DNA of 64,000 nt from Synergistaceae bacterium (GCA_017450125.1 JAFSWZ010000013.1:78282-142281), one strand, 5' to 3'. Shown: positions 2,971-52,942, counted from the first letter of the stretch. Notes: a model not told the origin generated them from the letters alone. Numbers and translations: made by a program.

Positions 2971-4605
2971 TTACTCTTTTCCCCAGTCCAAGCCTTTGAA
3001 GGCTTCCGCGAACGGGGTGTAATTTCCTTCTTCCGAGTCGTCCTCGTAACCTGTAACATCCTTATCGCGGTGAGGGTAATTCTTTCCGCCCTTGCGGTCT
3101 CTGCGGTCGCCTCTCTCGGAACGGTCTCCCCTAAGCTCGGGTCTGCCTTCCGCCTCAGGTGCTGCCTCCTTCACAGGTTCGGGCTCAAGCGCGCTGAGGG
3201 ACAGCCTCATTCTGCGCTGTGCCTGGTCAACCTCGAGGATGCGCGCCGTAATTTCTTGGCCTTCCGTGAGAACGTCAGCGGGCTTCTCCACTCTCTTGCG
3301 GCTGAGCTGGGAGATGTGGATAAGTGCCTCAACGCCCTCTTCGAGCTCCACGAACGCCCCGAACTCCGCCAGACGCACAACCTTTACGGGCACGTCCTGA
3401 CCCTTGACGTAACGCTTGTCGATGTCCGCCCACGGGTCATTGAGCTGCTTGCACCCGAGACTGATGCGGCGTTTCTCCTGGTCTGCCTCGAGAACGAGAA
3501 CCTCGAGCTCCTGCCCTCTGCGAAGGACATCACGCGGCTTCTTGATGCGCGCCCAGCTGATGTCTCCGACGTGCACGAGGCCTTCAATGCCCGGCTCAAG
3601 CTCAACGAACGCCCCGAAGTCCGTGAGGTTCGTTACCGTGCCTTTCATGACATCGCCCTTGTGGATGCGCTCGCTCATGGTGTCCCACGGGTCGCCGGTT
3701 ACCTGCTTGATGCTGAGGGAAATCCTGTCCTTGTCGCGCTCGATACCGATGACCTTCACCTTAACCTTGTCGCCCTTCTTGAACATGTCGCGTATCTTCA
3801 CGTTGCGCTTCCACGTGAGCTCCGTAACATGAACGAGGCCGTCAAGCTCGCCGAGATTTACGAACACGCCGAAGTCCGTCAGGCTCGACACTTCACCTTC
3901 TACGATGTCGCCCTCATGAACTCTCTCGTAGAACTTGGCCTTACGCTCGTTCTCTGCTTCCTCGAGGAGCTCGCGGCGCGAGAACACAAGCCTGTGCTTC
4001 CTCTTGTCGTGGTCGAGTACCTTGACCTTTATGTTCTGGCCGACGAAGTTCGACGGGTTAGCTCCTCTGCCTGCAAGCGTGAGGTGAGATACGGGGATGA
4101 ACCCCTCGAGCCCGAAGCTGTCCACCATGAGCCCGCCCTTGACACGGCTCACACCGCGAACCTGCATCACGGGGCTTTCCTTTACGGCTGCCTCGAGTGC
4201 TTCCCATCTCCTGTCGAACTCGTGCCTCCAGCGCGACAGCAATAACTGTGCTTCTTCGCCGTCTCTTACGCTGACTACTTCAACTTCTATCTGGTCGCCC
4301 GCTTTAGGTTCAGGGCCGGTCTCGATGAGCGCGTGATTGGTGTACTCCTTCTCGGGAAGAACGCCCTCGCACTTAAACCCTACGTCGACGATGAAACCTG
4401 CGTCCGTCTTGCCTACTACCGTGCCCGTAAGTATCTGCCCCTTGCGAAGCCTCACCGCGCTGCCGTACTGGTCGAGGAGTTCCCCCATGTTTTCCGGCTC
4501 ATGCTGTGCTTCTGCCTGTGCACCTTCCGACTGGACGGGTGCTGTGTCTTCCGCTGCTGCAGCTTCCTGTGCTGTTAATTCCTGCTGATCCATGATGTGA
4601 ATCAA
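2971..4605 (-). CDS. rpsA: 30S ribosomal protein S1
   Basis: Repeated S1/OB domains (GTVVGKTDAGFIVDVG, GVSRVKGGLMVD, GEVSSLTDFGVFVNLG, GTVTNLTDFGAFVELE, VKVVRLAEFGAFVELEEG). Lies directly downstream of ispH. Start is TTG at 4605 or ATG at 4593. Confidence 0.93.
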   Translation of the reverse strand: MIHIMDQQELTAQEAAAAEDTAPVQSEGAQAEAQHEPENMGELLDQYGSAVRLRKGQILTGTVVGKTDAGFIVDVGFKCEGVLPEKEYTNHALIETGPEPKAGDQIEVEVVSVRDGEEAQLLLSRWRHEFDRRWEALEAAVKESPVMQVRGVSRVKGGLMVDSFGLEGFIPVSHLTLAGRGANPSNFVGQNIKVKVLDHDKRKHRLVFSRRELLEEAENERKAKFYERVHEGDIVEGEVSSLTDFGVFVNLGELDGLVHVTELTWKRNVKIRDMFKKGDKVKVKVIGIERDKDRISLSIKQVTGDPWDTMSERIHKGDVMKGTVTNLTDFGAFVELEPGIEGLVHVGDISWARIKKPRDVLRRGQELEVLVLEADQEKRRISLGCKQLNDPWADIDKRYVKGQDVPVKVVRLAEFGAFVELEEGVEALIHISQLSRKRVEKPADVLTEGQEITARILEVDQAQRRMRLSLSALEPEPVKEAAPEAEGRPELRGDRSERGDRRDRKGGKNYPHRDKDVTGYEDDSEEGNYTPFAEAFKGLDWGKE

Positions 4606-4620
4606 ACCCCCTATTACTGC

Positions 4621-5472
4621 CTATTTGTGCGCTATTATGTTACGTATTTTATCGATAAGCCACCCGGGCGTGCTTGCTCCGGCGGCAATACCAATCCTGT
4701 TTTTACCCGTGAACCAGTTGCGATTTTCCTCCAGCTCGTCCTCGTCCTCTACCCATAACACACTTACTCCCTCAGAAGCTATTATGTCCCTCAGCTTGCC
4801 GGTGTTCGCGCTCTCTCTTCCGCCAATCAGCACCACTCCGTCAACATTGCTGTCTCTGACGAGTGCGCGTGCACTTGCCTGACGTTCGGCCGTAGCCTTG
4901 CAGATTGTGTTGCACACGTGGAGCTCCGAGCACTTCATTGAAAGAAGCCCTGCTACCTTCGCCAGGCGTTCTTCTCTCTGCGTAGTCTGCGAGACCAGTG
5001 CGATTCTCGGATGTCTGGTGATGTGAGCTGCCTCTTCCTCATCCGCCGCAACGTCGACGGTTTCAGGATGTGCAGTGTGCCCGAGAATGCCCTTGATTTC
5101 GGGATGGTTCTTGTCTCCCAGAAGAACGATGTGATAGTTCAGCTTCTCCCATTCCGCCGCCATGTCCTGAGCCTTCTTGACGAAAGGGCACGTCATGTCA
5201 TCGACAACTGCACCCTTCGCCGAAAGTTCCGCCAGCACCTCGAGCGGCTCGCCGTGAGCGCGAATGAGCACCCTTGCTCCGGCGGGGATGTCCTCAGCCG
5301 AACGTGCTACCTTCAGCCCCATAGCCTCAAGGCGTGCAACTTCCTGCGGGTTGTGGATGGGAAGCCCTATCGTCCAGACCTCCGGCGTGTCGCGAAGGGC
5401 TGCCTCTATTGCGTCGACTGCACGCTTCACCCCGAAACAGAAACCGGCATGTTCCGCCATAACCGTTATCAT
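4621..5472 (-). CDS. ispH: 4-hydroxy-3-methylbut-2-enyl diphosphate reductase
   Basis: GFCFGVKRAV N-terminus, conserved Cys positions (TCPFV, CNTIC), 283 aa. ATGA overlap with the miaA stop. Confidence 0.92.
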   Translation of the reverse strand: MITVMAEHAGFCFGVKRAVDAIEAALRDTPEVWTIGLPIHNPQEVARLEAMGLKVARSAEDIPAGARVLIRAHGEPLEVLAELSAKGAVVDDMTCPFVKKAQDMAAEWEKLNYHIVLLGDKNHPEIKGILGHTAHPETVDVAADEEEAAHITRHPRIALVSQTTQREERLAKVAGLLSMKCSELHVCNTICKATAERQASARALVRDSNVDGVVLIGGRESANTGKLRDIIASEGVSVLWVEDEDELEENRNWFTGKNRIGIAAGASTPGWLIDKIRNIIAHK

Positions 5473-6413
5473 TCGTGAGCTTCTCCGTGCATGTGATGTG
5501 TTATAGCCTCTATGATTTCTTCCTCGTGATTTGACGCGGACATGTCAAACCAGACTGCGGGCGTGAACTTCTTGAACCACGTCTGCTGTCTCCGGCAGAA
5601 TGCCTTTGTCCGTGAGATTGTCTGCTCAAGTGCCTGCTCCAGTGTCAACTTCCCGCGATGATGCTCGATGAGTTCCTTGTAGCCCAAGCCCTTCAGCGGG
5701 TTGAACCTCTCATCAAAACCGTGCGACAGAAGCCAGCTTATTTCTTCAGGGAAACCCTCCGAGAACTCCTGCTCAAGCCGTATCTCTATGCGCGAGAACA
5801 GTTCTTCCCTCGCCCGCGACAGCCCGACGTACAGCACATCGAAGCCGTAATCACGTTTGCTGCCTTCCTGATAGAGCTGTGAGGGAGCTTTCCCCGTCAA
5901 GTCCCATATCTCCAGAGCCCGCGTTACTCTCTGAACGTCATTCTTGTGGAGCCTTCCCGCCGTCTCGGGGTCAACCTCAGCCAGCCTCATGTGAAGCAGC
6001 TCTGCTCCCTGAGAGTTGGCGAGCGTCTCGTACTTCTCCCGAACCTCAGAGTCAGACGGCAGCTCTTCATTCAGCACAGCGTGAAACAGCGCGTTGTAGT
6101 AGAACGGAGTTCCGCCGACGAACAGCGGGATACGTCTGCGCGCAAGAATACGCGATGCCGCACGTGATGCTTCTTCTGCGAAGTCTGAGACGGTGAATTT
6201 TTCGTCGGGGTCGGCAATGTCTATCATGTGGTGTGGAATTTCACGGCGCAACGCAGGCGAAATCTTGTCAGTGCCAACGTCCATGTAGCGATACACCTGA
6301 CGTGAATCTACTGATATGATTTCAGCGTTTAGTTTCTCTGCAATGGATAAGCTGAGCGCAGTTTTGCCTACCGCTGTAGCTCCGATTAAAGCAACCACAG
6401 GCTGCCGATTCAT
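5469..6413 (-). CDS. miaA: tRNA dimethylallyltransferase
   Basis: P-loop VALIGATAVGKTALS, then SVDSRQVYRYMDVGTDK and IPHHMIDI. I trimmed the ORF-track N-terminal extension to ATG at 6413 (MNRQPVV...). Confidence 0.9.
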   Translation of the reverse strand: MNRQPVVALIGATAVGKTALSLSIAEKLNAEIISVDSRQVYRYMDVGTDKISPALRREIPHHMIDIADPDEKFTVSDFAEEASRAASRILARRRIPLFVGGTPFYYNALFHAVLNEELPSDSEVREKYETLANSQGAELLHMRLAEVDPETAGRLHKNDVQRVTRALEIWDLTGKAPSQLYQEGSKRDYGFDVLYVGLSRAREELFSRIEIRLEQEFSEGFPEEISWLLSHGFDERFNPLKGLGYKELIEHHRGKLTLEQALEQTISRTKAFCRRQQTWFKKFTPAVWFDMSASNHEEEIIEAITHHMHGEAHE

Positions 6414-6525: not shown

Positions 6526-7047
6526 GTGATGAAGAAGTATCCTCCCCTCGAGATAGTTGCGCCGGTAGTGTTCGCGGTAGTGTTTGCGGTTACGCTGATA
6601 TACTCGCGGTTCGAGCCGCATGTTGAGGACGTGGACGCGTCGTACGTCAAGGCCAACACCGGGAAAGCAGGCTACGTGCTGGTTGACGTGAGGAGCGAGG
6701 AGGTTTTTGAGGGAGCGTCTCCGATGCCTGGAGTTCCTGGCGGGCACATTCCTGGAGCAGTGAACTTTCCGCTCGATGACCTGAAGATTGCGGCACCAGC
6801 GGCGGCACTGGCCAAGACGGGCATCGTGAAGGACAGGACGGTGATACTGTACTGTAACACCGGGACAGCGGCGGGGAAGTTCGCTGATGCGTTGATCCGG
6901 CACTTCAACTTTTCGCCCTCGCGCCTGAAGAACTATCGCGGCAGCATGCGGGATTGGTCAAGGTACTCGTCGAACCCTCTGTTGCCGAAAGACCACGAGA
7001 CCGGCCTTCCCGACGCAGTGAAGCCGCTGACACTCGGGGGCAAATGA
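6526..7047 (+). CDS. Rhodanese-domain sulfurtransferase with N-terminal membrane anchor
   Basis: YVLVDVRSEEVFEG, GHIPGAVNFP, active-site loop ILYCNTGTAAG. Hydrophobic N-terminus. RBS AAGGAG at 6513-6518. Confidence 0.75.
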   Translation: MMKKYPPLEIVAPVVFAVVFAVTLIYSRFEPHVEDVDASYVKANTGKAGYVLVDVRSEEVFEGASPMPGVPGGHIPGAVNFPLDDLKIAAPAAALAKTGIVKDRTVILYCNTGTAAGKFADALIRHFNFSPSRLKNYRGSMRDWSRYSSNPLLPKDHETGLPDAVKPLTLGGK

Positions 7048-7078
7048 CGGATAATAATTATCGGGAGATGATTCGTAA

Positions 7079-8215
7079 TTGGCAGTACCAATCTTAGACC
7101 TAAAGCGTTCGTTCAGTGAGATAAAGCCGGAAGTTTCTGCGGCGGTAGAGAGAGTGTTTGCCTCGCAGGGATTTATTCTCGGGCGTGAAGTCAGTGTGTT
7201 CGAGAAGCACTGCGAGAAGTATCTCGAGATTCCAGAAGGCTCGTGTGTTGGCTGTGCGTCGGGTACAGATGCATTGCTTCTTGCTCTGATGGCCGAAGAC
7301 CTCAAGCCCGGCGACGAAGTAATCACAACGCCGTTCACGTTCTTTGCGACGGCGGGGGCGATTGCGCGTCTCGGAGGAGTGCCGGTGTTCGTGGACGTTG
7401 ACCCTGTAACGTACAACATCGACCTTCAGCAGGTGATGGACAAAGTTACGGATAGAACGAGAGTTTTTCTGCCTGTGCACTTGTTCGGACAGATGACACC
7501 GCTTGAAGAGATAATCCCCCAGCTTCACGGCAAGGGCATCAAGGTCATCGAGGACTCGGCTCAGGCTTTCGGTGCGACGCGCAACGTCAATGACGAGATT
7601 ACGCGCGCAGGATGCGTCGGTGATGTTGGGTGCTACTCGTTCTTCCCGACGAAGAATCTCGGGGGCTGCGGGGACGGCGGAATGGTAGTCTCTCGCGACA
7701 AGGACACTGCGGAACGTTTGCGCCGTCTTCGTGTTCACGGTTCAGGGACGACGTACTACCACGACGAGATAGGCATAAACAGTCGGCTTGATGCGATTCA
7801 GGCGGCAATACTGGACATCAAGCTCCGCCACCTCGACGAGTGGAACGAACAGCGCAGAAAGTCAGCCGAGTACTACAAGCTGCTGTTCAAGGCGAAGGGG
7901 CTTCATGAGTTCGTGAGCGTCCCTGAGGAACTGCCCGGCAACGTGCACATCTGGCATCAGTACGTAGTGAGGGTCAAGGAGAGGCGCGATGAGCTGATGA
8001 GCTTCCTTGAGGATAAGGGAGTGAGCGTGAGGGTGTATTATCCCCTGCCGCTGCACCTTCAGCCGTGCTTCAGGTATCTGGGTTACGCGGAAGGAAGCCT
8101 GCCGGTCAGCGAGGAGCTGTCGCGTGAGGTTATGGCCTTGCCGGTGTATCCCGGCCTGACGCAGGAGGAACAGGAAGAAGTAGTGGTGAGAATAGCAGAG
8201 TTCTTCACGAAGTAA
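7079..8215 (+). CDS. DegT/DnrJ/EryC1/StrS family PLP-dependent aminotransferase
   Basis: PILDLKR..., GFILGREVSVFE, SGTDALLLAL, PGDEVITTPFTFFATAGAI, VFVDVDPVTYNID, FFPTKNLG. TTG start preceded by GGGAGA. Confidence 0.85.
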   Translation: MAVPILDLKRSFSEIKPEVSAAVERVFASQGFILGREVSVFEKHCEKYLEIPEGSCVGCASGTDALLLALMAEDLKPGDEVITTPFTFFATAGAIARLGGVPVFVDVDPVTYNIDLQQVMDKVTDRTRVFLPVHLFGQMTPLEEIIPQLHGKGIKVIEDSAQAFGATRNVNDEITRAGCVGDVGCYSFFPTKNLGGCGDGGMVVSRDKDTAERLRRLRVHGSGTTYYHDEIGINSRLDAIQAAILDIKLRHLDEWNEQRRKSAEYYKLLFKAKGLHEFVSVPEELPGNVHIWHQYVVRVKERRDELMSFLEDKGVSVRVYYPLPLHLQPCFRYLGYAEGSLPVSEELSREVMALPVYPGLTQEEQEEVVVRIAEFFTK

Positions 8216-8274
8216 TCTGATACAATACCTCCATAAATCCCCCAACATTCAGCTTAATATGGAGGTATTGTTTT

Positions 8275-9771
8275 ATGGTCAACCACGAACTCAACCGGCT
8301 GTTAGCCTTTGCGCTTCACCACCAGCTTATCACGCCCGCCGACAAGATATGGGCGGCAAATTCGCTCATCGGGATACTCGGCATCCACGACTTCCAGCCC
8401 GAAGACATCAGCGAGACGTTCGGGACATCGCCGGACAGCATCTTGGCCAGGATTCTTGACTGGGCGGCAGAAAATCACCTCATCGAGAACACAGAGACCG
8501 AGCGCGACCTTCTCGACACGGAATTAATGGGGGCACTCACACCCAGACCTTCCGACGTGATCGAGAGGTTCAACGCCCTGCGTGCACAGTCCCCCGTAGC
8601 GGCAACTGATTACTTCTACGCGCTGGGAGTGTCGTCGAACTACATACGTTCCGAGCGCACGGCCAAGAACATCTGCTGGAAGAGTGCGACGGAGTTCGGG
8701 GAGCTCGACATCACGATAAACATGAGCAAGCCCGAGAAAGACCCGCGCGACATTGCGAAGGCCAAGACGATAAAGGCGACCGGCTACCCGAAGTGCCTGC
8801 TCTGCAAGGAGAACGAGGGCTTCTACGGTCATCACGGCCACCCTGCGCGACAGAACATCAGGCTTATCCCCGTAGAGCTTGAGGGGCGTGAATGGTATTT
8901 CCAGTACTCGCCCTACAGCTACTACAACGAACACTGCATTGTGCTCGACGGCAATCACGTGCCCATGCTCATCAGCCACGAGACGTTCAGCAACCTCTTT
9001 GCGTTCATCACGGAGTTTCCTCATTACTTTGTGGGCTCGAATGCAGATTTGCCCATCGTCGGGGGCTCGATACTCTCACACGACCACTATCAGGGAGGGC
9101 GTTACGTCTTCGCGATGAACACAGCTCCGTTCGAGCGTCAGTACGAGTACGGTGATAGTGGGGTAACAGTGGGACGCATAAAGTGGCCGATGAGTGCGGT
9201 GCGCCTGCGTTCGGCAGACCCCGAGAAGCTGATACCGTTAGCGGACAAGATTCTTTCTGCGTGGCGCGAATGGACGGACGAGAGCGTGGGAGTGTTAGCG
9301 TATTCCGACGGCGAGCCCCACAACACGATCACGCCGATTGCGCGGAGGCACGGTACGGACTACGAGCTTGACCTTGTGCTCAGGAACAACAGAACGAGCG
9401 AAGAGCACCCGCTGGGCATTTTCCACCCTCACGCAGAAGTTCACCACATCAAGAAAGAGAACATAGGGCTGATTGAGGTAATGGGCTTGGCGGTTCTTCC
9501 TGCGAGGCTGAAGAGTGCTCTGGAGAAGATATGCGCGGCGTGGCTTGAGGGGAAAGAGAGTTTGCCGTCAGAGCTTGAGGCGCATGACGTGTGGTACAGA
9601 GGCCTTCGGAAGAAGCACGAGGGCTTGAGCGGCGAGACGGAGACGCGGGAGATGCTGCGCTCTGAGGTCGGGCACGTGTTCGCGCAGGTTCTGACGGACA
9701 GCGGGGTCTACAAGAGAACGCCGGAAGGTACGGCGGCATTCGACAAATTCATGACGGAGGTATTGCGGTAA
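8275..9771 (+). CDS. galT: UDP-glucose--hexose-1-phosphate uridylyltransferase (GalT, type 2)
   Basis: About 498 aa, the long Firmicutes-type GalT: KATGYPKCLLCKENEGFYG, HPARQNIRLIP, WYFQYSPYSYYNEHCIVL, GGSILSHDHYQGG. Confidence 0.85.
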   Translation: MVNHELNRLLAFALHHQLITPADKIWAANSLIGILGIHDFQPEDISETFGTSPDSILARILDWAAENHLIENTETERDLLDTELMGALTPRPSDVIERFNALRAQSPVAATDYFYALGVSSNYIRSERTAKNICWKSATEFGELDITINMSKPEKDPRDIAKAKTIKATGYPKCLLCKENEGFYGHHGHPARQNIRLIPVELEGREWYFQYSPYSYYNEHCIVLDGNHVPMLISHETFSNLFAFITEFPHYFVGSNADLPIVGGSILSHDHYQGGRYVFAMNTAPFERQYEYGDSGVTVGRIKWPMSAVRLRSADPEKLIPLADKILSAWREWTDESVGVLAYSDGEPHNTITPIARRHGTDYELDLVLRNNRTSEEHPLGIFHPHAEVHHIKKENIGLIEVMGLAVLPARLKSALEKICAAWLEGKESLPSELEAHDVWYRGLRKKHEGLSGETETREMLRSEVGHVFAQVLTDSGVYKRTPEGTAAFDKFMTEVLR

Positions 9772-48397: not shown

Positions 48398-49954
48398 CTA
48401 GAACTCTATCGCTGTCCTGAACTTCACGACATTGTCTTCCCTGCTGGCCGCGCCGTTAGCATCGTTATCAGCGTGCATGTAGTTGAGACCGAGTGTCGTG
48501 TAGTCGTTGAGCTTGTACTGTACGCCTAAACCGAACTCCTTCGGGCTGACATCAGCGTTGCCCCACTCGAGCTTGTAGCCGTAGTAGAACAGGTAGGTTG
48601 ACCACTTGTCGTTCCACTCCTGGCCGAGACCGACTCTCCAGTACTTCGTATCAAACTGTATACGCCTGCCGCCATTCATGCCGTACTCTTCCTTCAGAAG
48701 GTCGCCATAGAACAGGATTCCAGTGTTGTTGCCCCAGAAACCCCTGTCATACTGGCCATACTCGAGCCACAGGCTGGTGAACTTCAGAGCCTGCTGTTTC
48801 ACATCAAGGATGGCTGCCCAGTGGTTTGCGTCATCAATGATGTTGTTGTTTGCGTCCAGCAACAAAGAGCCGGTATCCATCCACTTGAGCAACCCGTCAT
48901 TAGGGTCGCGATAGACCATCTCGGTATCCATCTCCTGATGGTAGAACACACCCTTGAAGCCGATGGCATCGTTGAAGTTAAAGCGAAGCCCGCCATACAC
49001 TGTCCAGAGGTTGTTGAAGGACACGTCGCCAATTCTGTGCTCAGTAATATCGCCGTTATTGTCAAGCCCCGTAAACTGCTCAGCATTATCACCGACGAAC
49101 ACCTGTGCTCCGAGATCGAGTCCGATCTGTTCGGTGAACTGGAGCGTAACCTGCGGCAAAATCATCCACAGATCGAACACTGTCGTCTGGCTTCCGTAAA
49201 AATTACCATTACGATCCGTTATACGACCACCGATACTCCATCTGTCGCTGGGATGTGCGAACACTACACGTGCCATGCCCAGCCCGAAGTTCTTGGTTAC
49301 GCCGAAGCCCGTCATTGTCCAGTCTGTGAGGATCTGGTCACCGTCCCAAACGCCCGTGCCGGGGAGGGAAATCTTATAGTCGCCCTCAAGAGCCCAGTTG
49401 AAACGTCCTACAGTCATCTTCGTGTCGAAGAAGAAAGGCATCTCCACGAAGAACCTGTCTAAGCGTCCATTTCCGCCCTCTTCATCGCGAAGTCTTGCCG
49501 CGAAGAAGTAATCCTCATTCTCGCCAAACCTGCGCTCGAACCAGATTCTCGCCTCATCGAAGCCTACTGAACCCTTACCGTCAGGTCCGATTGCGTCGCC
49601 AGCGTCATTACGGCTCTCATTCTGAACATCGAGCACGAGCGTTCCGTGCATGTGCCACCCGCCGAGCCTGTCTTCCAGAACAGCTACTCTCTCGTCAAGC
49701 TCGTCTACCCTTACGCCGAGTGCCTCGAGCTCGTCCTTGAACTCAACAACGAGCCTCTTGAGCATCTCTACGTCCTGCTTGCTGGCCTTCGTCATGTCTA
49801 CTACTGCGAGTGCTCTGGCAAGCGCACTGGCCATCTCGTAACGTGTCGTGGACTGCTGCCCTTTGTAGGTTCCGTCAGGATAACCCGAGAGAATCCCGTG
49901 TGCGGCCAGCTGGCCGATTGCGTCATATGCCCAGTGGTTCATCGGCACGTCCAT
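48398..49954 (-). CDS. SLH-domain OmpM-like outer-membrane porin, paralog 1 (apparently silent: no start codon ahead of its signal peptide)
   Basis: SLH domain (NHWAYDAIGQLAAHGILSGYPDGTYKG), coiled-coil stalk, beta-barrel ending ...VKFRTAIEF. The frame stays open upstream to 50035, encoding KKKLAVIAAVVAVAALAAPAFSATNPF, but begins right after an in-frame TGA with AAA where paralog 2 has ATG. The first ATG (49954) would give a protein with no signal peptide. Confidence 0.75.
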   Translation of the reverse strand: MDVPMNHWAYDAIGQLAAHGILSGYPDGTYKGQQSTTRYEMASALARALAVVDMTKASKQDVEMLKRLVVEFKDELEALGVRVDELDERVAVLEDRLGGWHMHGTLVLDVQNESRNDAGDAIGPDGKGSVGFDEARIWFERRFGENEDYFFAARLRDEEGGNGRLDRFFVEMPFFFDTKMTVGRFNWALEGDYKISLPGTGVWDGDQILTDWTMTGFGVTKNFGLGMARVVFAHPSDRWSIGGRITDRNGNFYGSQTTVFDLWMILPQVTLQFTEQIGLDLGAQVFVGDNAEQFTGLDNNGDITEHRIGDVSFNNLWTVYGGLRFNFNDAIGFKGVFYHQEMDTEMVYRDPNDGLLKWMDTGSLLLDANNNIIDDANHWAAILDVKQQALKFTSLWLEYGQYDRGFWGNNTGILFYGDLLKEEYGMNGGRRIQFDTKYWRVGLGQEWNDKWSTYLFYYGYKLEWGNADVSPKEFGLGVQYKLNDYTTLGLNYMHADNDANGAASREDNVVKFRTAIEF

Positions 49955-50015
49955 GAAAGGATTGGTCGCTGAAAACGCCGGGGCTGCAAGTGCTGCAACT
50001 GCTACAACAGCTGCT

Positions 50016-50032
50016 ATTACTGCTAATTTCTT
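50016..50032. repeat. Left copy of an exact 17-nt inverted repeat (ATTACTGCTAATTTCTT; reverse complement AAGAAATTAGCAGTAAT)
   Basis: Identical in inverted orientation to 51302-51318. Covers codons 2-7 of the paralog 1 signal-peptide frame. Confidence 0.9.
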
Positions 50033-50079
50033 TTTTCAGTACAATACACCTACAATTTTTCCACGAAGGAGAACCCGCC

Positions 50080-51009
50080 ATGATCCTAGAACCATTCTTC
50101 AGGTTTATCGATGTCTCGGAGAAAACAGAGTCCATCTACCGCAGAGCCTTGCGGCAGCTCTTCACCTACTTCACCGAACACGGAATCCTCAAGCCCTCCC
50201 GCGACGACATCATCAGCTTCCGCAGACACCTCGAACGCAAGCACCTCAAGCCCAGCACCATCGCACTATACCTCGCCGCAAGCCGCAGGTTCTTCGCCTG
50301 GACAGAACACGCCGGAATCTACCCCAACATCGCGCTCGGCGTTAAAGCCCCGAAGCCCGAGCCCGGCCACAAACGCGACTGCCTCTGCGCCGAACAGCTC
50401 CGCACAATCCTCGCCGGGATCGACCGCACAACCCCCATAGGCCGCAGAAACTTCGCCATCATCGCCCTCATGTCAGTAACCGGCCTCCGCACAATCGAGG
50501 TCTCTCGCGCAAACATCGGCGACTTCCGTAAAGTCGGCACGCACACCTGCCTGTTCGTGAGGGGCAAGGGACGGTGCACAAAGTCTGAGTTCGTGAAGGT
50601 CCCTCCCCCAGTCAGCTCAGCAATCGGCGACTACATCAGGGAACGCGGCAAAGTTCAGGAGTCCGCCCCGCTCTTTGCCTCAATGAGCCGCCGGAACACG
50701 AATGCCCGCCTCTCCGCACAAACCATCTCCAAGCTCTGCAAATCCGCAATGCGCGCAAACGGCTTCTCCTCCTCGCGCCTCACCGCGCATTCCCTCCGAC
50801 ACACCGCAATAACCTTGTCCCTATCGGCTGGCATACCACTGAGTGAGGTTCAGGCCTTCGCACGGCACAAGAACATCACCACCACAATGATCTACGCTCA
50901 CCACGTCGACCGCCTCAGAAGCCCTTGCGAGGAAGCAGTCTGCGCCGCTGTTTTCCAAAACTTTATACGTGAAATTACAGATTCGCTTGCAATTTTCAGA
51001 TGTGTGTAG
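50080..51009 (+). CDS. Tyrosine site-specific recombinase (XerC/XerD/integrase family)
   Basis: SAM-like N-domain, then TGLRTIEVSR (Arg I), HSLRHT (H-x-x-R), MIYAHH (catalytic Tyr). ATG at 50080 follows AAGGAG. ORF-track N-terminal extension trimmed. Confidence 0.85.
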   Translation: MILEPFFRFIDVSEKTESIYRRALRQLFTYFTEHGILKPSRDDIISFRRHLERKHLKPSTIALYLAASRRFFAWTEHAGIYPNIALGVKAPKPEPGHKRDCLCAEQLRTILAGIDRTTPIGRRNFAIIALMSVTGLRTIEVSRANIGDFRKVGTHTCLFVRGKGRCTKSEFVKVPPPVSSAIGDYIRERGKVQESAPLFASMSRRNTNARLSAQTISKLCKSAMRANGFSSSRLTAHSLRHTAITLSLSAGIPLSEVQAFARHKNITTTMIYAHHVDRLRSPCEEAVCAAVFQNFIREITDSLAIFRCV

Positions 51010-51015
51010 TAATAT
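50987..51015 (+). promoter_or_regulatory. Strong sigma70-like promoter TTGCAA-17 nt-TAATAT reading toward porin paralog 2
   Basis: TTGCAA (50987-92), 17-nt spacer, TAATAT (51010-15). Overlaps the recombinase stop codon. Predicts a 5' UTR of about 275-280 nt. Confidence 0.55.
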
Positions 51016-51298
51016 ACTCCGCGTGCTACGGGAAATACGTAGCGGAATATCGTCAAACCAACGCAGAACTTGTTAGCCAGAAGCAGGGAAAGGAGATGCA
51101 CGAATCCCCGTTCAAGCATTAAGGAAGAGTTCGGACGCGGAGGGCGCAGGAGGTCGGGAGTACAGCCTCTCGGACTGTCAGAGGGACAGAAAGGAAACAA
51201 GGTAACTTTCCGAACCCCCGCAGGCTCAGGGCAGTATATGGACTGAGTGCGTAAAAGGCGATAGTTGATTGACAATTTCATAAGGGGGTTTATCTGTA
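51016..51298 (+). promoter_or_regulatory. Long purine-rich 5' leader of porin paralog 2 (possibly a structured RNA)
   Basis: About 290-nt non-coding gap, the largest in the window. Local hairpins (GCTACG-GGAAATA-CGTAGC; CTCAG-13 nt-CTGAG). RBS AAGGGGG before ATG 51299. Confidence 0.45.
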
Positions 51299-52942
51299 AT
51301 GAAGAAATTAGCAGTAATGTTCTTAGCTGCAGTTCTTGCGGTGAGCGCGGTTGCTCCTGCATTCTCTGCAACTAATCCGTTTATGGACGTACCCATGAAT
51401 CACTGGGCGTACGATGCGATAGGACAGCTTGCGGCTCATGGAATACTTTCCGGCTACCCGGACGGCACGTACAAGGGTCAGCAGTCAACCACGAGGTACG
51501 AGATGGCATCAGCACTTGCGAGGGCACTTGCTGTTGTGGACATGACCAAAGCGAGCAAGCAGGATGTCGAAATGCTGAAGCGTCTTGTGGTGGAGTTCAA
51601 GGATGAGCTTGAAGCTCTGGGTGTCAGGGTTGATGAACTCGACGAGCGCGTTGCTGTTCTCGAGGATCGTCTCGGAGGATGGCACATTGAAGGTTCACTG
51701 GTGCTTGATGTCATAAACCAGAGCAGGAACAGTGCAGGCGATGCGTTTGATGGTGACGGCGAAGGCTCGGTTGGCTTCGATGAAGCAAGGTTGATCTTCG
51801 AGCGCAACTTCGGCGAGAACGACGACTACTTCTTCCGTGCGAGGCTTCGCAATGACGATACGGTTCATGCGCGCTTCGATAGGTTCTTCGTGGAGATGCC
51901 GTTCTTCTTTGACAGCAAGATGACTGTCGGACGCTTCAGCTGGGCTCTCGAAGGAGACTACAAGATTTCTCTTCCCGGCACTGGCGTGTGGGATGGCGAC
52001 CAGATCCTCACGGACTGGACGTTTGATGGCTTCGGTCTCACCAAGAACTTCGGTCTGGGTATGGCGCGTATAGCCTTCGCGCATCCTAGTAGGTATACTG
52101 CCAGTACATTGACGTATGATGCCGATGGGAACATAACGGGTTGGAGAACCACAGCATTGGACACTTGGATGATTTTGGCGCAGGCTTCCCTCCAGTTCAC
52201 CGAACAGATCGGTTTCGATATTGGCGGACAAGCATATGTAGGCGACAATGCAGAGCAATTTTCTGTGGCAGATGTCAATGGTAACCTCACTAGGCATGGT
52301 GCTGGAGACTTGTCCTTCAACAATATCTGGACAATTTACGGTGGCCTTCGCTTCAACTTCAACGACGCTATAGGCATCAAGGGTGTCTTCTACCACCAGA
52401 ACGTGGATATGGAAGAAGTCTATGTAGACGGGAATAATCGTCTCGCTTGGAGAGATCGTGGCTACTTCGGCGGCGGAGCTGGGATGATTGATGATGCCAA
52501 CCACTGGGCAGTAATTCTCGACGTGAAGCAGGCGGCTCTCAAGTACACTAGCCTGTGGCTCGAGTACGGCCAGTTCGATGAGGGCTTCTGGGGCAATAAC
52601 GGCGGAATACTGTTCTACGGCGACCTTCTTCAGCAAACCTTTGGCGGGAGCAGGGCGTACTGGGATACAAAGTACTACAGAGTCGGGCTTGGGCAGGAGT
52701 GGACCGACAAGTTCTCAACTTACCTGTTCTACTATGGATACGTCGTTGAGGATGCTATAGGAGTCTATAATGGTAATGGCGTGTTTCTTCGCACTGAGGA
52801 CGTAAAGCCCAAGGAGTACGGCATCGGTGTAAGCTACAAGCTCAATGACTACACGACGCTCGGCCTCAACTATATGCACGCTGATGACGACGTAGGCCGC
52901 GAGGACAACGTCGTGAAATTCAGGACGAAGGTAACGTTCTAG
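51299..52942 (+). CDS. SLH-domain OmpM-like outer-membrane porin, paralog 2 (expressed configuration)
   Basis: Complete signal peptide MKKLAVMFLAAVLAVSAVAPAFSA. SLH domain and coiled coil identical in protein sequence to paralog 1. Beta-barrel ending ...VKFRTKVTF. Confidence 0.85.
   Translation: MKKLAVMFLAAVLAVSAVAPAFSATNPFMDVPMNHWAYDAIGQLAAHGILSGYPDGTYKGQQSTTRYEMASALARALAVVDMTKASKQDVEMLKRLVVEFKDELEALGVRVDELDERVAVLEDRLGGWHIEGSLVLDVINQSRNSAGDAFDGDGEGSVGFDEARLIFERNFGENDDYFFRARLRNDDTVHARFDRFFVEMPFFFDSKMTVGRFSWALEGDYKISLPGTGVWDGDQILTDWTFDGFGLTKNFGLGMARIAFAHPSRYTASTLTYDADGNITGWRTTALDTWMILAQASLQFTEQIGFDIGGQAYVGDNAEQFSVADVNGNLTRHGAGDLSFNNIWTIYGGLRFNFNDAIGIKGVFYHQNVDMEEVYVDGNNRLAWRDRGYFGGGAGMIDDANHWAVILDVKQAALKYTSLWLEYGQFDEGFWGNNGGILFYGDLLQQTFGGSRAYWDTKYYRVGLGQEWTDKFSTYLFYYGYVVEDAIGVYNGNGVFLRTEDVKPKEYGIGVSYKLNDYTTLGLNYMHADDDVGREDNVVKFRTKVTF
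51302..51318. repeat. Right copy of the exact 17-nt inverted repeat (AAGAAATTAGCAGTAAT)
   Basis: Immediately follows the ATG of paralog 2. Inverted match to 50016-50032. Confidence 0.9.

Follow-up and report, generated by a model that had tools for sequence, protein, structure and literature searches.

How can two neighbouring genes encode a long stretch of protein without a single amino acid difference when their DNA has drifted about as far apart as synonymous change allows? The question is raised by two porin genes that lie in opposite orientation in a 64,000-nucleotide stretch of DNA from a Synergistaceae bacterium (GCA_017450125.1 JAFSWZ010000013.1:78282-142281), here called the window, in which all positions are counted from the first letter. 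The shared stretch (the block) comprises the last part of the signal peptide, the SLH domain and a coiled-coil stalk, and it is followed in each protein by a beta-barrel. The answer favoured here, with a probability of about 0.8, is that an ancient duplication and very strong purifying selection explain the block, at a two-gene promoter-inversion locus of an OmpM-type porin. The genes and the two versions of the shared module are located as follows.

48398..50032, minus strand: porin paralog 1 (W1), lineage A, PSP1 side; Pfam SLH E = 1.2e-10 and a weak Porin_4 match
51299..52942, plus strand: porin paralog 2 (W2), block of lineage B, ACT side; 547 amino acids (aa); joined to the likely promoter and to ATG
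49652..49984, minus strand: version A of the invariant module, 111 aa; the 101-aa part is 49652-49954
51353..51685, plus strand: version B of the invariant module, 111 aa; the 101-aa part is 51383-51685

The identical block, codon by codon

The block was translated and compared codon by codon by machine, with W1 as paralog 1 (49954..49652, minus strand) and W2 as paralog 2 (51383..51685, plus strand). The original prediction had described 101 identical residues, MDVPMNHWAY...VLEDRLGGWH, and the machine translation returned the same result for all 101. The codon count also holds, as 67 of the 101 codons differ and each difference is synonymous. Seven codons specify Met or Trp, so that 67 of 94 degenerate codons are changed. 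At the DNA level, 73 of the 303 nucleotides (nt) differ, which corresponds to 75.9% identity, and the differences fall at the third (67), first (5) and second (1) codon positions. The longest identical run inside the block is 11 nt. The switches said to need more than one synonymous step were recovered at five residues: R38 CGT/AGG, S43 AGT/TCA, R67 AGG/CGT, R89 AGA/CGC and R96 AGG/CGT. A global alignment of both genes extended the identical run by 10 residues upstream (APAFSATNPF). The resulting run of 111 aa covers 49652..49984 in W1 and 51353..51685 in W2, and 76 of its 104 degenerate codons differ (two-fold codons 17/38, four-fold 39/42, six-fold 18/22).

Independent codon choice predicts 61.2 +/- 4.6 differing codons of 104 under the codon usage of the window (z = 3.2 for the observed 76) and 70.2 +/- 4.6 under uniform usage (z = 1.3). 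The count is at or above what the original prediction had called roughly independent choice, and the block is at synonymous saturation or somewhat past it. The Nei-Gojobori proportion of synonymous differences in the block reaches 0.95-0.99. This value was not taken as evidence of "super-saturation", because six-fold Arg, Ser and Leu switches inflate it, and fractions of differing codons were used instead.

Family-wide constraint and two old lineages

The protein sequence of the block is kept far beyond this pair of genes. In nearly all of the 120 best homologs, 93-99 of the 101 residues are identical, while the whole proteins are only 50-75% identical. Over 111 Synergistaceae homologs, the median identity is 95% in the block and 48% in the barrel. 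One of the two explanations first offered was extreme constraint on the peptidoglycan-anchoring and stalk module, and it is supported by this family-wide conservation together with the alignment of the SLH domain and stalk to OmpM1. The idea could have failed if orthologs had proved no more conserved here than elsewhere, and the block is in fact unusually conserved.

Both porins consist of a signal peptide, one SLH domain, the stalk and the barrel. The N-terminus reads MKKLAVMFLAAVLAVSAVAPAFSA and then TNPF.., which places a signal peptide before the single SLH domain (Pfam PF00395, E = 1.1e-10, residues 27-70, over the curated cut-off). A protein annotated in a Synergistaceae metagenome-assembled genome (MAG) matches W2 at 100% identity. 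With phmmer, query residues 3-133 align to residues 3-122 of the Veillonella OmpM1 chain (E = 5.5e-27), and the next match that is not an OmpM is SlpA of an S-layer entry. The OmpM1 alignment spans the coiled-coil stalk. In an AlphaFold model built with 43 homologs, helices lie at residues 66-122 with low confidence in the monomer, as is expected of a trimeric stalk. Residues 128-546 are modelled as strands of a C-terminal beta-barrel, with a predicted local distance difference test score mostly of 80-95. The Foldseek matches of this model are porins, namely OccAB4, OprP, MOMP and OmpM1 (8bys, E = 2e-11).

According to the OmpM paper (PMC10628300), OmpM is a trimeric porin. Its periplasmic stalk, made up of three SLH domains and a triple coiled-coil, tethers the outer membrane to modified peptidoglycan, and ligand grooves lie between the protomers. 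The paper names W34, Y36, G58 and TRYE 63-66 as ligand-groove residues of VpOmpM1; Tyr36/Tyr65 belong to the polyamine-binding type. Block residues W8, Y10, G32 and T37-R38-Y39-E40 correspond to these positions. Judged by sequence and predicted model, W1 and W2 are OmpM-type outer-membrane tether porins. By analogy they would form trimers and bind peptidoglycan. They have in common with OmpM1 of Veillonella parvula and Mep45 of Selenomonas ruminantium (PDB 8bys, 8bym, 8bz2) the order of signal peptide, one SLH domain, coiled-coil stalk and C-terminal barrel, as well as the W, G and TRYE groove motifs and both tyrosines. They differ in belonging to another phylum and in having a larger barrel without detectable sequence similarity. 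Ligand, trimer and tether role are only predicted for the present porins, and an inversion switch is not described in the consulted parts of the OmpM paper.

The age of the two versions can be read from related loci, designated here by L numbers. On related contigs, the gene order is holB/PSP1, porin, recombinase, porin, ACT, Mrp. Lineage A stands on the PSP1 side (window-, L083+, L084+, L086- and L001+, the sign giving the strand) and includes the single porins of the switch-less loci L091, L092 and L096-L100. Lineage B stands on the ACT side and adjoins the tyrosine recombinase (window+, L083-, L086+, L087-, L088-, L001-, L093 and L095). Five genomes are paired (window, L083, L084, L086 and L001), four of them independent. 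The fraction of degenerate codons that differ in the block is 0.24-0.44 between A copies, 0.35-0.60 between B copies and 0.53-0.78 between A and B, whether or not the copies share a genome; within the five paired genomes it is 0.69-0.71. Certain synonymous states are fixed by lineage, such as AGR (A) against CGY (B) at R67, R89 and R96, GAC/GAT at D61 and CAC/CAT at H101. The consensus proteins of the two lineages are identical. Each window copy carries one derived residue, against 26 and 32 derived states among the 94 degenerate codons. Our estimate from these derived states puts omega, the ratio of nonsynonymous to synonymous divergence (dN/dS), at about 0.01 in the SLH-stalk block, compared with about 0.15-0.2 in the barrel, where dN is 0.15-0.3 at a dS of 0.6-1.5.

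Ancient duplication and extreme constraint can thus account for a dN of 0 at a saturated dS. On this account, the A and B lineages separated long before the sampled species did, and for this reason their synonymous sites are saturated, with about 70% of degenerate codons differing. Purifying selection at an omega of about 0.01 keeps the SLH-stalk protein nearly invariant in the whole family. The switch-less genomes (L091, L092, L096-L100) have a single A-type porin with the same leader, and B always adjoins a tyrosine recombinase. In this reading, A is the ancestral resident gene, and in some species B with the recombinase is an addition on the ACT side. The old A porin would have been located between PSP1/holB and the ACT-domain gene before the oppositely oriented B gene and the recombinase joined it.

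The G+C content at third codon positions is lower in B-side porin genes than in the A-side genes of the same genome. Among the window, L001, L083 and L086-L088, the barrels have about 0.55 (B) and 0.65-0.70 (A), the block has 0.31-0.63 (B) and 0.53-0.67 (A), and the recombinase has 0.73. Lower expression of B or a foreign origin may be the cause.

The barrels have a different history. The original prediction held that they diverge like ordinary paralogs, which is not what the comparison gave, as their synonymous divergence is below that of the block. Among codons for identical residues, 117 of 273 differ in the barrel and 76 of 104 in the block (Fisher P = 1.6e-7), and the barrel is below saturation (145.6 +/- 7.5 expected). 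Since the barrels are less diverged than the block at synonymous sites, the genes are mosaics, with a breakpoint near the following position.

51773, plus strand: approximate mosaic breakpoint in W2 (~49564 in W1); change-point at alignment column 159

The change-point is about 30 codons past the block. For degenerate codons of identical residues, the differing fraction is 0.71 on its left and 0.41 on its right (permutation P < 0.0005). The A-side barrels are coherent, with 0.25-0.42 of codons differing, and most B-side barrels are saturated against all others (0.50-0.61). Two exceptions, window+ and L088-, have barrels that are closer to the A side (0.37-0.44). For W2, the fraction is 0.38-0.44 against A-side barrels and 0.52-0.60 against most other B-side barrels. 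The A-side barrel of L086 was left out on account of an N run (scaffold gap, 3409-3537) after residue 114; its gene calls of 329 aa and 153 aa are fragments of one A-side porin gene. It follows that barrels were replaced and the block remained with its locus. Between L083 and L084 (5229-6806), the recombinase and the B porin are 100% identical, yet the A barrels are only 78% identical, which points to a recent allele replacement of one porin.

The usual explanation for identical proteins of tandem or inverted paralogs is gene conversion, with the synonymous differences arising later or from a strand-specific mutation bias, and the barrels do show exchange. For the block, this account is very improbable. 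Its copies have only 76% nt identity without an identical run of more than 11 nt, both copies resemble their orthologs in other species far more than they resemble each other, and lineage-specific synonymous states are conserved across species. The pattern of concerted evolution is absent from the block, as the within-genome fraction of 0.69-0.71 compares with 0.24-0.60 between orthologs. Strand-specific mutation bias was rejected as well: third-position composition does not differ between the plus- and minus-strand genes in the window, and the compositions of A and B are not complementary.

The putative invertible segment and its orientation

The two porin genes stand back to back on either side of a segment that has the parts of a site-specific switch.

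50016..50032, no strand: left 17-bp inverted repeat ATTACTGCTAATTTCTT, reverse complement of AAGAAATTAGCAGTAAT; porin codons 2-7; presumed crossover site
51302..51318, no strand: right 17-bp inverted repeat AAGAAATTAGCAGTAAT, directly after ATG
50033..51301, no strand: putative invertible segment with the recombinase gene, porin promoter, conserved leader, ribosome-binding site (RBS) and ATG
50080..51009, plus strand: Xer-like tyrosine recombinase, presumed invertase, 309 aa
50987..51015, plus strand: likely porin promoter; -35 TTGCAA 50987-50992, 17-nt spacer, -10 TAATAT 51010-51015; overlaps the 3' end of the recombinase open reading frame (ORF)
51016..51298, plus strand: conserved leader of ~280 nt; RBS AAGGGGG 51282-51288; possible anti-Shine-Dalgarno sequence ACCCCC 51214-51219

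The inverted repeat is perfect, and its copies, 1269 nt apart, bound the segment on both sides. In most switch loci, a 15-nt repeat core, AAGAAATTAGCAGTA, is identical on both copies while the neighbouring synonymous sites are saturated, and its preservation in such surroundings fits a site that is recognised by a protein. The recombinase matches Pfam Phage_integrase (PF00589, E = 6.5e-21) and SAM-like N-terminal domains, and its matches to the NCBIfam Xer families are all under their cut-offs. The catalytic residues R137, H237-x-x-R240, H263 and Y272 are invariant in alignment A1, so that the catalytic domain is intact. Homologs at 64-80% identity include Synergistaceae-named MAG entries, and all four homologs whose contigs were examined adjoin such a porin. 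The window ORF has 309 aa compared with 294 aa in its closest relatives L083, L084 and L086 (window 50962-51009). The extra C-terminal codons cross the presumed -35 box and the spacer and stop one base short of the -10 box.

More distant recombinases occur in other settings. A metagenome scan with alignment A1 gave 80 loci with recombinases 45-58% identical to that of the window (L003-L082), and neither the porin block nor inverted paralogs around the recombinase were present at any of them. Recombinases at this level of identity abound in metagenomes from gut, rumen and digesters, with 567 confirmed stretches. A genome scan for further paired loci by means of the recombinase yielded one true relative, L001.

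The promoter candidate TTGCAA-17-TAATAT was read from the sequence and is conserved in eight loci, including switch-less ones; a consensus promoter and terminator scanner called nothing on the locus, so the candidate rests on the alignment of these loci. Strong conservation also covers the 290 nt that precede the porin ATG in the same number of loci (window, L001, L083, L086, L091, L092, L096 and L100). The promoter would thus lie inside the segment at 50987-51015 and drive the adjacent porin. W1 has an intact frame from AAG AAA TTA.. (KKLAV) to its stop and is without ATG, RBS or promoter. Its start region reads TGA AAA AAG AAA TTA.., with TGA just upstream of the frame. As read from this arrangement, W1 is currently silent, presumably, and W2 is the copy joined to promoter and ATG.

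The leader may have a role of its own. RNAalifold pairs its ACCCCC (51214-51219) with GGGGGT of the RBS (51284-51289); all predicted pairs are invariant and have no covariation support. The predicted anti-Shine-Dalgarno pairing suggests translational control of the porin. An Rfam search of the locus, leader included, gave no credible family match.

Seen against the PSP1 and ACT flanks, the window, L090 and L086 have the segment directed at the ACT-side porin, and L083-L085 have it directed at the PSP1-side porin. For L001, the block lineages agree with this picture. In L001, which is not obviously syntenic, and on the contigs that hold only a B copy and the recombinase (L087, L088, L093-L095), the 5' end of the recombinase gene abuts a B-type copy without ATG, and the promoter therefore faces the other side. 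Both orientations thus occur among related genomes, and inversion may be active. Flipping the 1.27-kb segment would assign the promoter and start codon to one of the two porins at a time; the cell would thereby exchange the surface-exposed barrel and keep its periplasmic anchor. The contig ends near the recombinase in L087, L088 and L093-L095 were considered as a sign of mixed orientation and rejected. The breaks fall in the leader conserved between species, not in the repeats, and assembly collapse of conserved sequence explains them equally well.

Parallel residues, codon differences and known switches

Several observations weigh against age, constraint and an active switch as the complete explanation. 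Constraint alone predicts about two residue differences between W1 and W2, and none is observed. The module is not absolutely invariant, since the two L001 copies differ at 12 residues. The four-fold codons of the window differ at 39 of 42 sites, which exceeds plain saturation (binomial P = 0.003 vs 0.75), and codon shuffling within each window copy expects 59.3 +/- 3.1 differences where 67 are observed (P = 0.009). Assemblies of the same species keep one orientation (window = L090; L083 = L084 = L085). Finally, the repeats of L083 and L084 have diverged: the core differs between them, AAGAAATTTGCAGTT vs AAGAAATATGCAGTA, and both have departed from the AAGAAATTTACAGCG of the silent copy. From this sequence divergence, the switch may be locked in these two genomes.

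Part of the discrepancy lies in residues that changed in both copies of a genome. At site 35 of the window, where the consensus is Q, both copies carry S (TCC/TCA), and the count of exactly 0 differences arises because both have this same derived residue. Site 41 is L/L (CTT/TTA) in L083/L084, and L086 has F/F at site 25 and N/N at site 95. In L001, sites 19, 33, 35, 64 and 66 are D/D, K/K, P/P (CCT/CCG), N/N and R/R, and at six more coiled-coil positions both copies have changed and now carry different residues. Within 1-3 codons of the shared rare residues, the lineage-specific synonymous markers are intact, and any conversion tracts would therefore be a few nucleotides long.

These parallel changes may reflect co-adaptation, in which the two modules must match each other or a shared genome-specific partner. 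Such an effect would complement the ancient duplication and purifying selection, and we consider it slightly favoured by the evidence. The partner candidates are the cell-wall ligand, mixed trimers during switching and other OmpM paralogs. The rare residues are common to both copies in different codons with lineage markers intact beside them, and co-adaptation would explain exactly 0 differences in the window rather than about 2. Within-genome A-B identity (101, 100, 101 and 89 residues) is higher than that of any A-B pairing across genomes. Of the 24 permutations, the true pairing ranks first, which gives P = 0.04 by our own count, the lowest value attainable with four genomes. Sites 33 and 35 are found between the Gly of the ligand groove and the TRYE motif. 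However, only four paired genomes bear on the question, and sites 33, 35, 41 and 95 are the most variable in the family, so that some coincidence is expected. The identical codons at F25, N95, D19 and N64 would allow very short conversion tracts. The original prediction had named mixed trimers or a common periplasmic partner as reasons for the constraint, and the parallel replacements in these sequences back this idea indirectly. The argument from mixed trimers is weakened because only one copy should be expressed at a time.

The second explanation first offered was selection against nucleotide homology between the inverted copies. It is not needed for the pattern, as A and B differ equally between and within genomes; what stands is a weak signal between partners, mainly from L086. 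In this proposal, the inverted blocks would be kept different in DNA beyond the effects of age and constraint, which would block RecA-dependent recombination, gene conversion or antisense pairing and leave the short repeat as the sole crossover site. The idea has several points in its favour. All five partner pairs exceed the expectation from within-copy codon shuffling, with z = +2.5 (window), +1.3, +0.9, +3.2 (L086) and +1.4, and with P = 0.009 for the window, 0.0004 for L086 and 0.10-0.22 for the others. Set against the same B blocks, A genes without a B partner (L092, L096, L100) have a z of about -0.2. Matches to the partner that arise from derived synonymous changes are fewer than expected from non-partners (54 vs 76.2; fewer in 8 of 8 tests). 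In L086, the created matches are 0 vs 6.1 and 10 vs 17.3 (P = 2e-4 each), and new codons in its A copy disrupt an A-like patch of the B copy (codons 62-66 and 73-75). Efficient RecA recombination needs roughly 25 nt of identity, and the longest identical run here is 11 nt; the barrels show exchange, and the block does not.

The created-match effect is nevertheless significant in L086 only, and without this locus the matches are 44 vs about 53, which is not significant. With four independent pairs, a partner permutation cannot reach P < 0.04, and the true pairing is not the one with the largest total A-B distance. Among two-fold codons, the differing share is only 45% and does not exceed 50%. 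No over-dispersion is seen between the A and B consensus sequences (60 of 94 vs 55.6 +/- 3.1, P = 0.10); the comparison of within-genome pairs with this consensus pair was judged biased, because a consensus favours common codons. The lower third-position G+C content of B genes alone raises the difference count. No cost of homology is clear either, as the sap locus of Campylobacter fetus uses long identical 5' regions for inversion. Avoidance of partner codons is thus unlikely, and it is similarly doubtful that the anchors are held the same as protein by parallel selection and apart as DNA by partner-specific codon avoidance. If this were true, the cell would possess a single interchangeable chassis for two barrels, and recombination could occur only at the recombinase site. 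A literature search on natural recoding to avoid recombination returned nothing relevant.

Comparison with known systems makes clear which features of the locus are familiar. In C. fetus sap, one promoter on an invertible segment lies between opposed surface-protein paralogs that have a conserved N-terminal anchor and a different exposed part, as in the present locus. There, the 5' regions are identical in nucleotides over hundreds of bp and inversion is RecA-dependent, whereas here the shared part is identical as protein only (76% in DNA) and a dedicated tyrosine recombinase with 17-bp repeats is present. Inversion of the RecA-dependent sap type through long identical 5' regions was rejected for the window on the 76% identity and the longest run of 11 nt. 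Extreme conservation of this kind is known from histone H4 and EF-Tu-type paralogs, in which strong purifying selection gives a dN near 0 at a saturated dS. In the porins, however, the constraint falls on one module of a mosaic surface protein, with parallel replacements in both copies. The vsa/HvsR system of Mycoplasma pulmonis and the Piv pilin inversion of Moraxella are site-specific switches with the crossover site inside the 5' coding region. "Partial intergenic" and intragenic invertons have been described by Chanin et al. (PMC10028968). All of these resemble the present locus in having short inverted repeats in or near the coding start, silent copies without promoter and first codon, and an adjacent recombinase gene. 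The differences are that the cargo here is an essential outer-membrane tether porin, that the recombinase rides on the segment and that there are two alternatives only. The locus is a new example, in Synergistaceae and with an OmpM-type tether porin, of the known two-gene promoter-inversion switch. Among the papers searched, a described porin switch of Synergistetes or Synergistaceae was not found.

OmpM-type proteins are the main outer-membrane tether and general porin of diderm Terrabacteria. Judged by this locus, Synergistaceae of rumen and gut may be able to exchange the surface barrel by a DNA flip and keep the anchor as it is, and the pressures behind such switching would likely be phage, immunity or nutrient supply. 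The anchor is among the most constrained parts of the envelope and offers a handle for studying outer-membrane attachment in the phylum. The parallel replacements and the hint of codon avoidance are the parts worth following up. If both hold in more genomes, these paralogs would be selected as the same protein with different DNA, a case that would bear on how genomes control recombination between repeats.

Small genes of toxin-antitoxin type (Gp49/HigB-like, YoeB, PhdYeFM, PIN) repeatedly adjoin the porin at this locus in different species. They are located in L091 at 3968-4569, in L092 at 3973-4633 and 6792-7809, in L096 at 4977-5637 and 7739-8687, in L100 at 5046-5704, in L083 at 6969-7515 and in L086 at 1568-2217. 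Their recurrence suggests that the porin locus is a hotspot for insertions.

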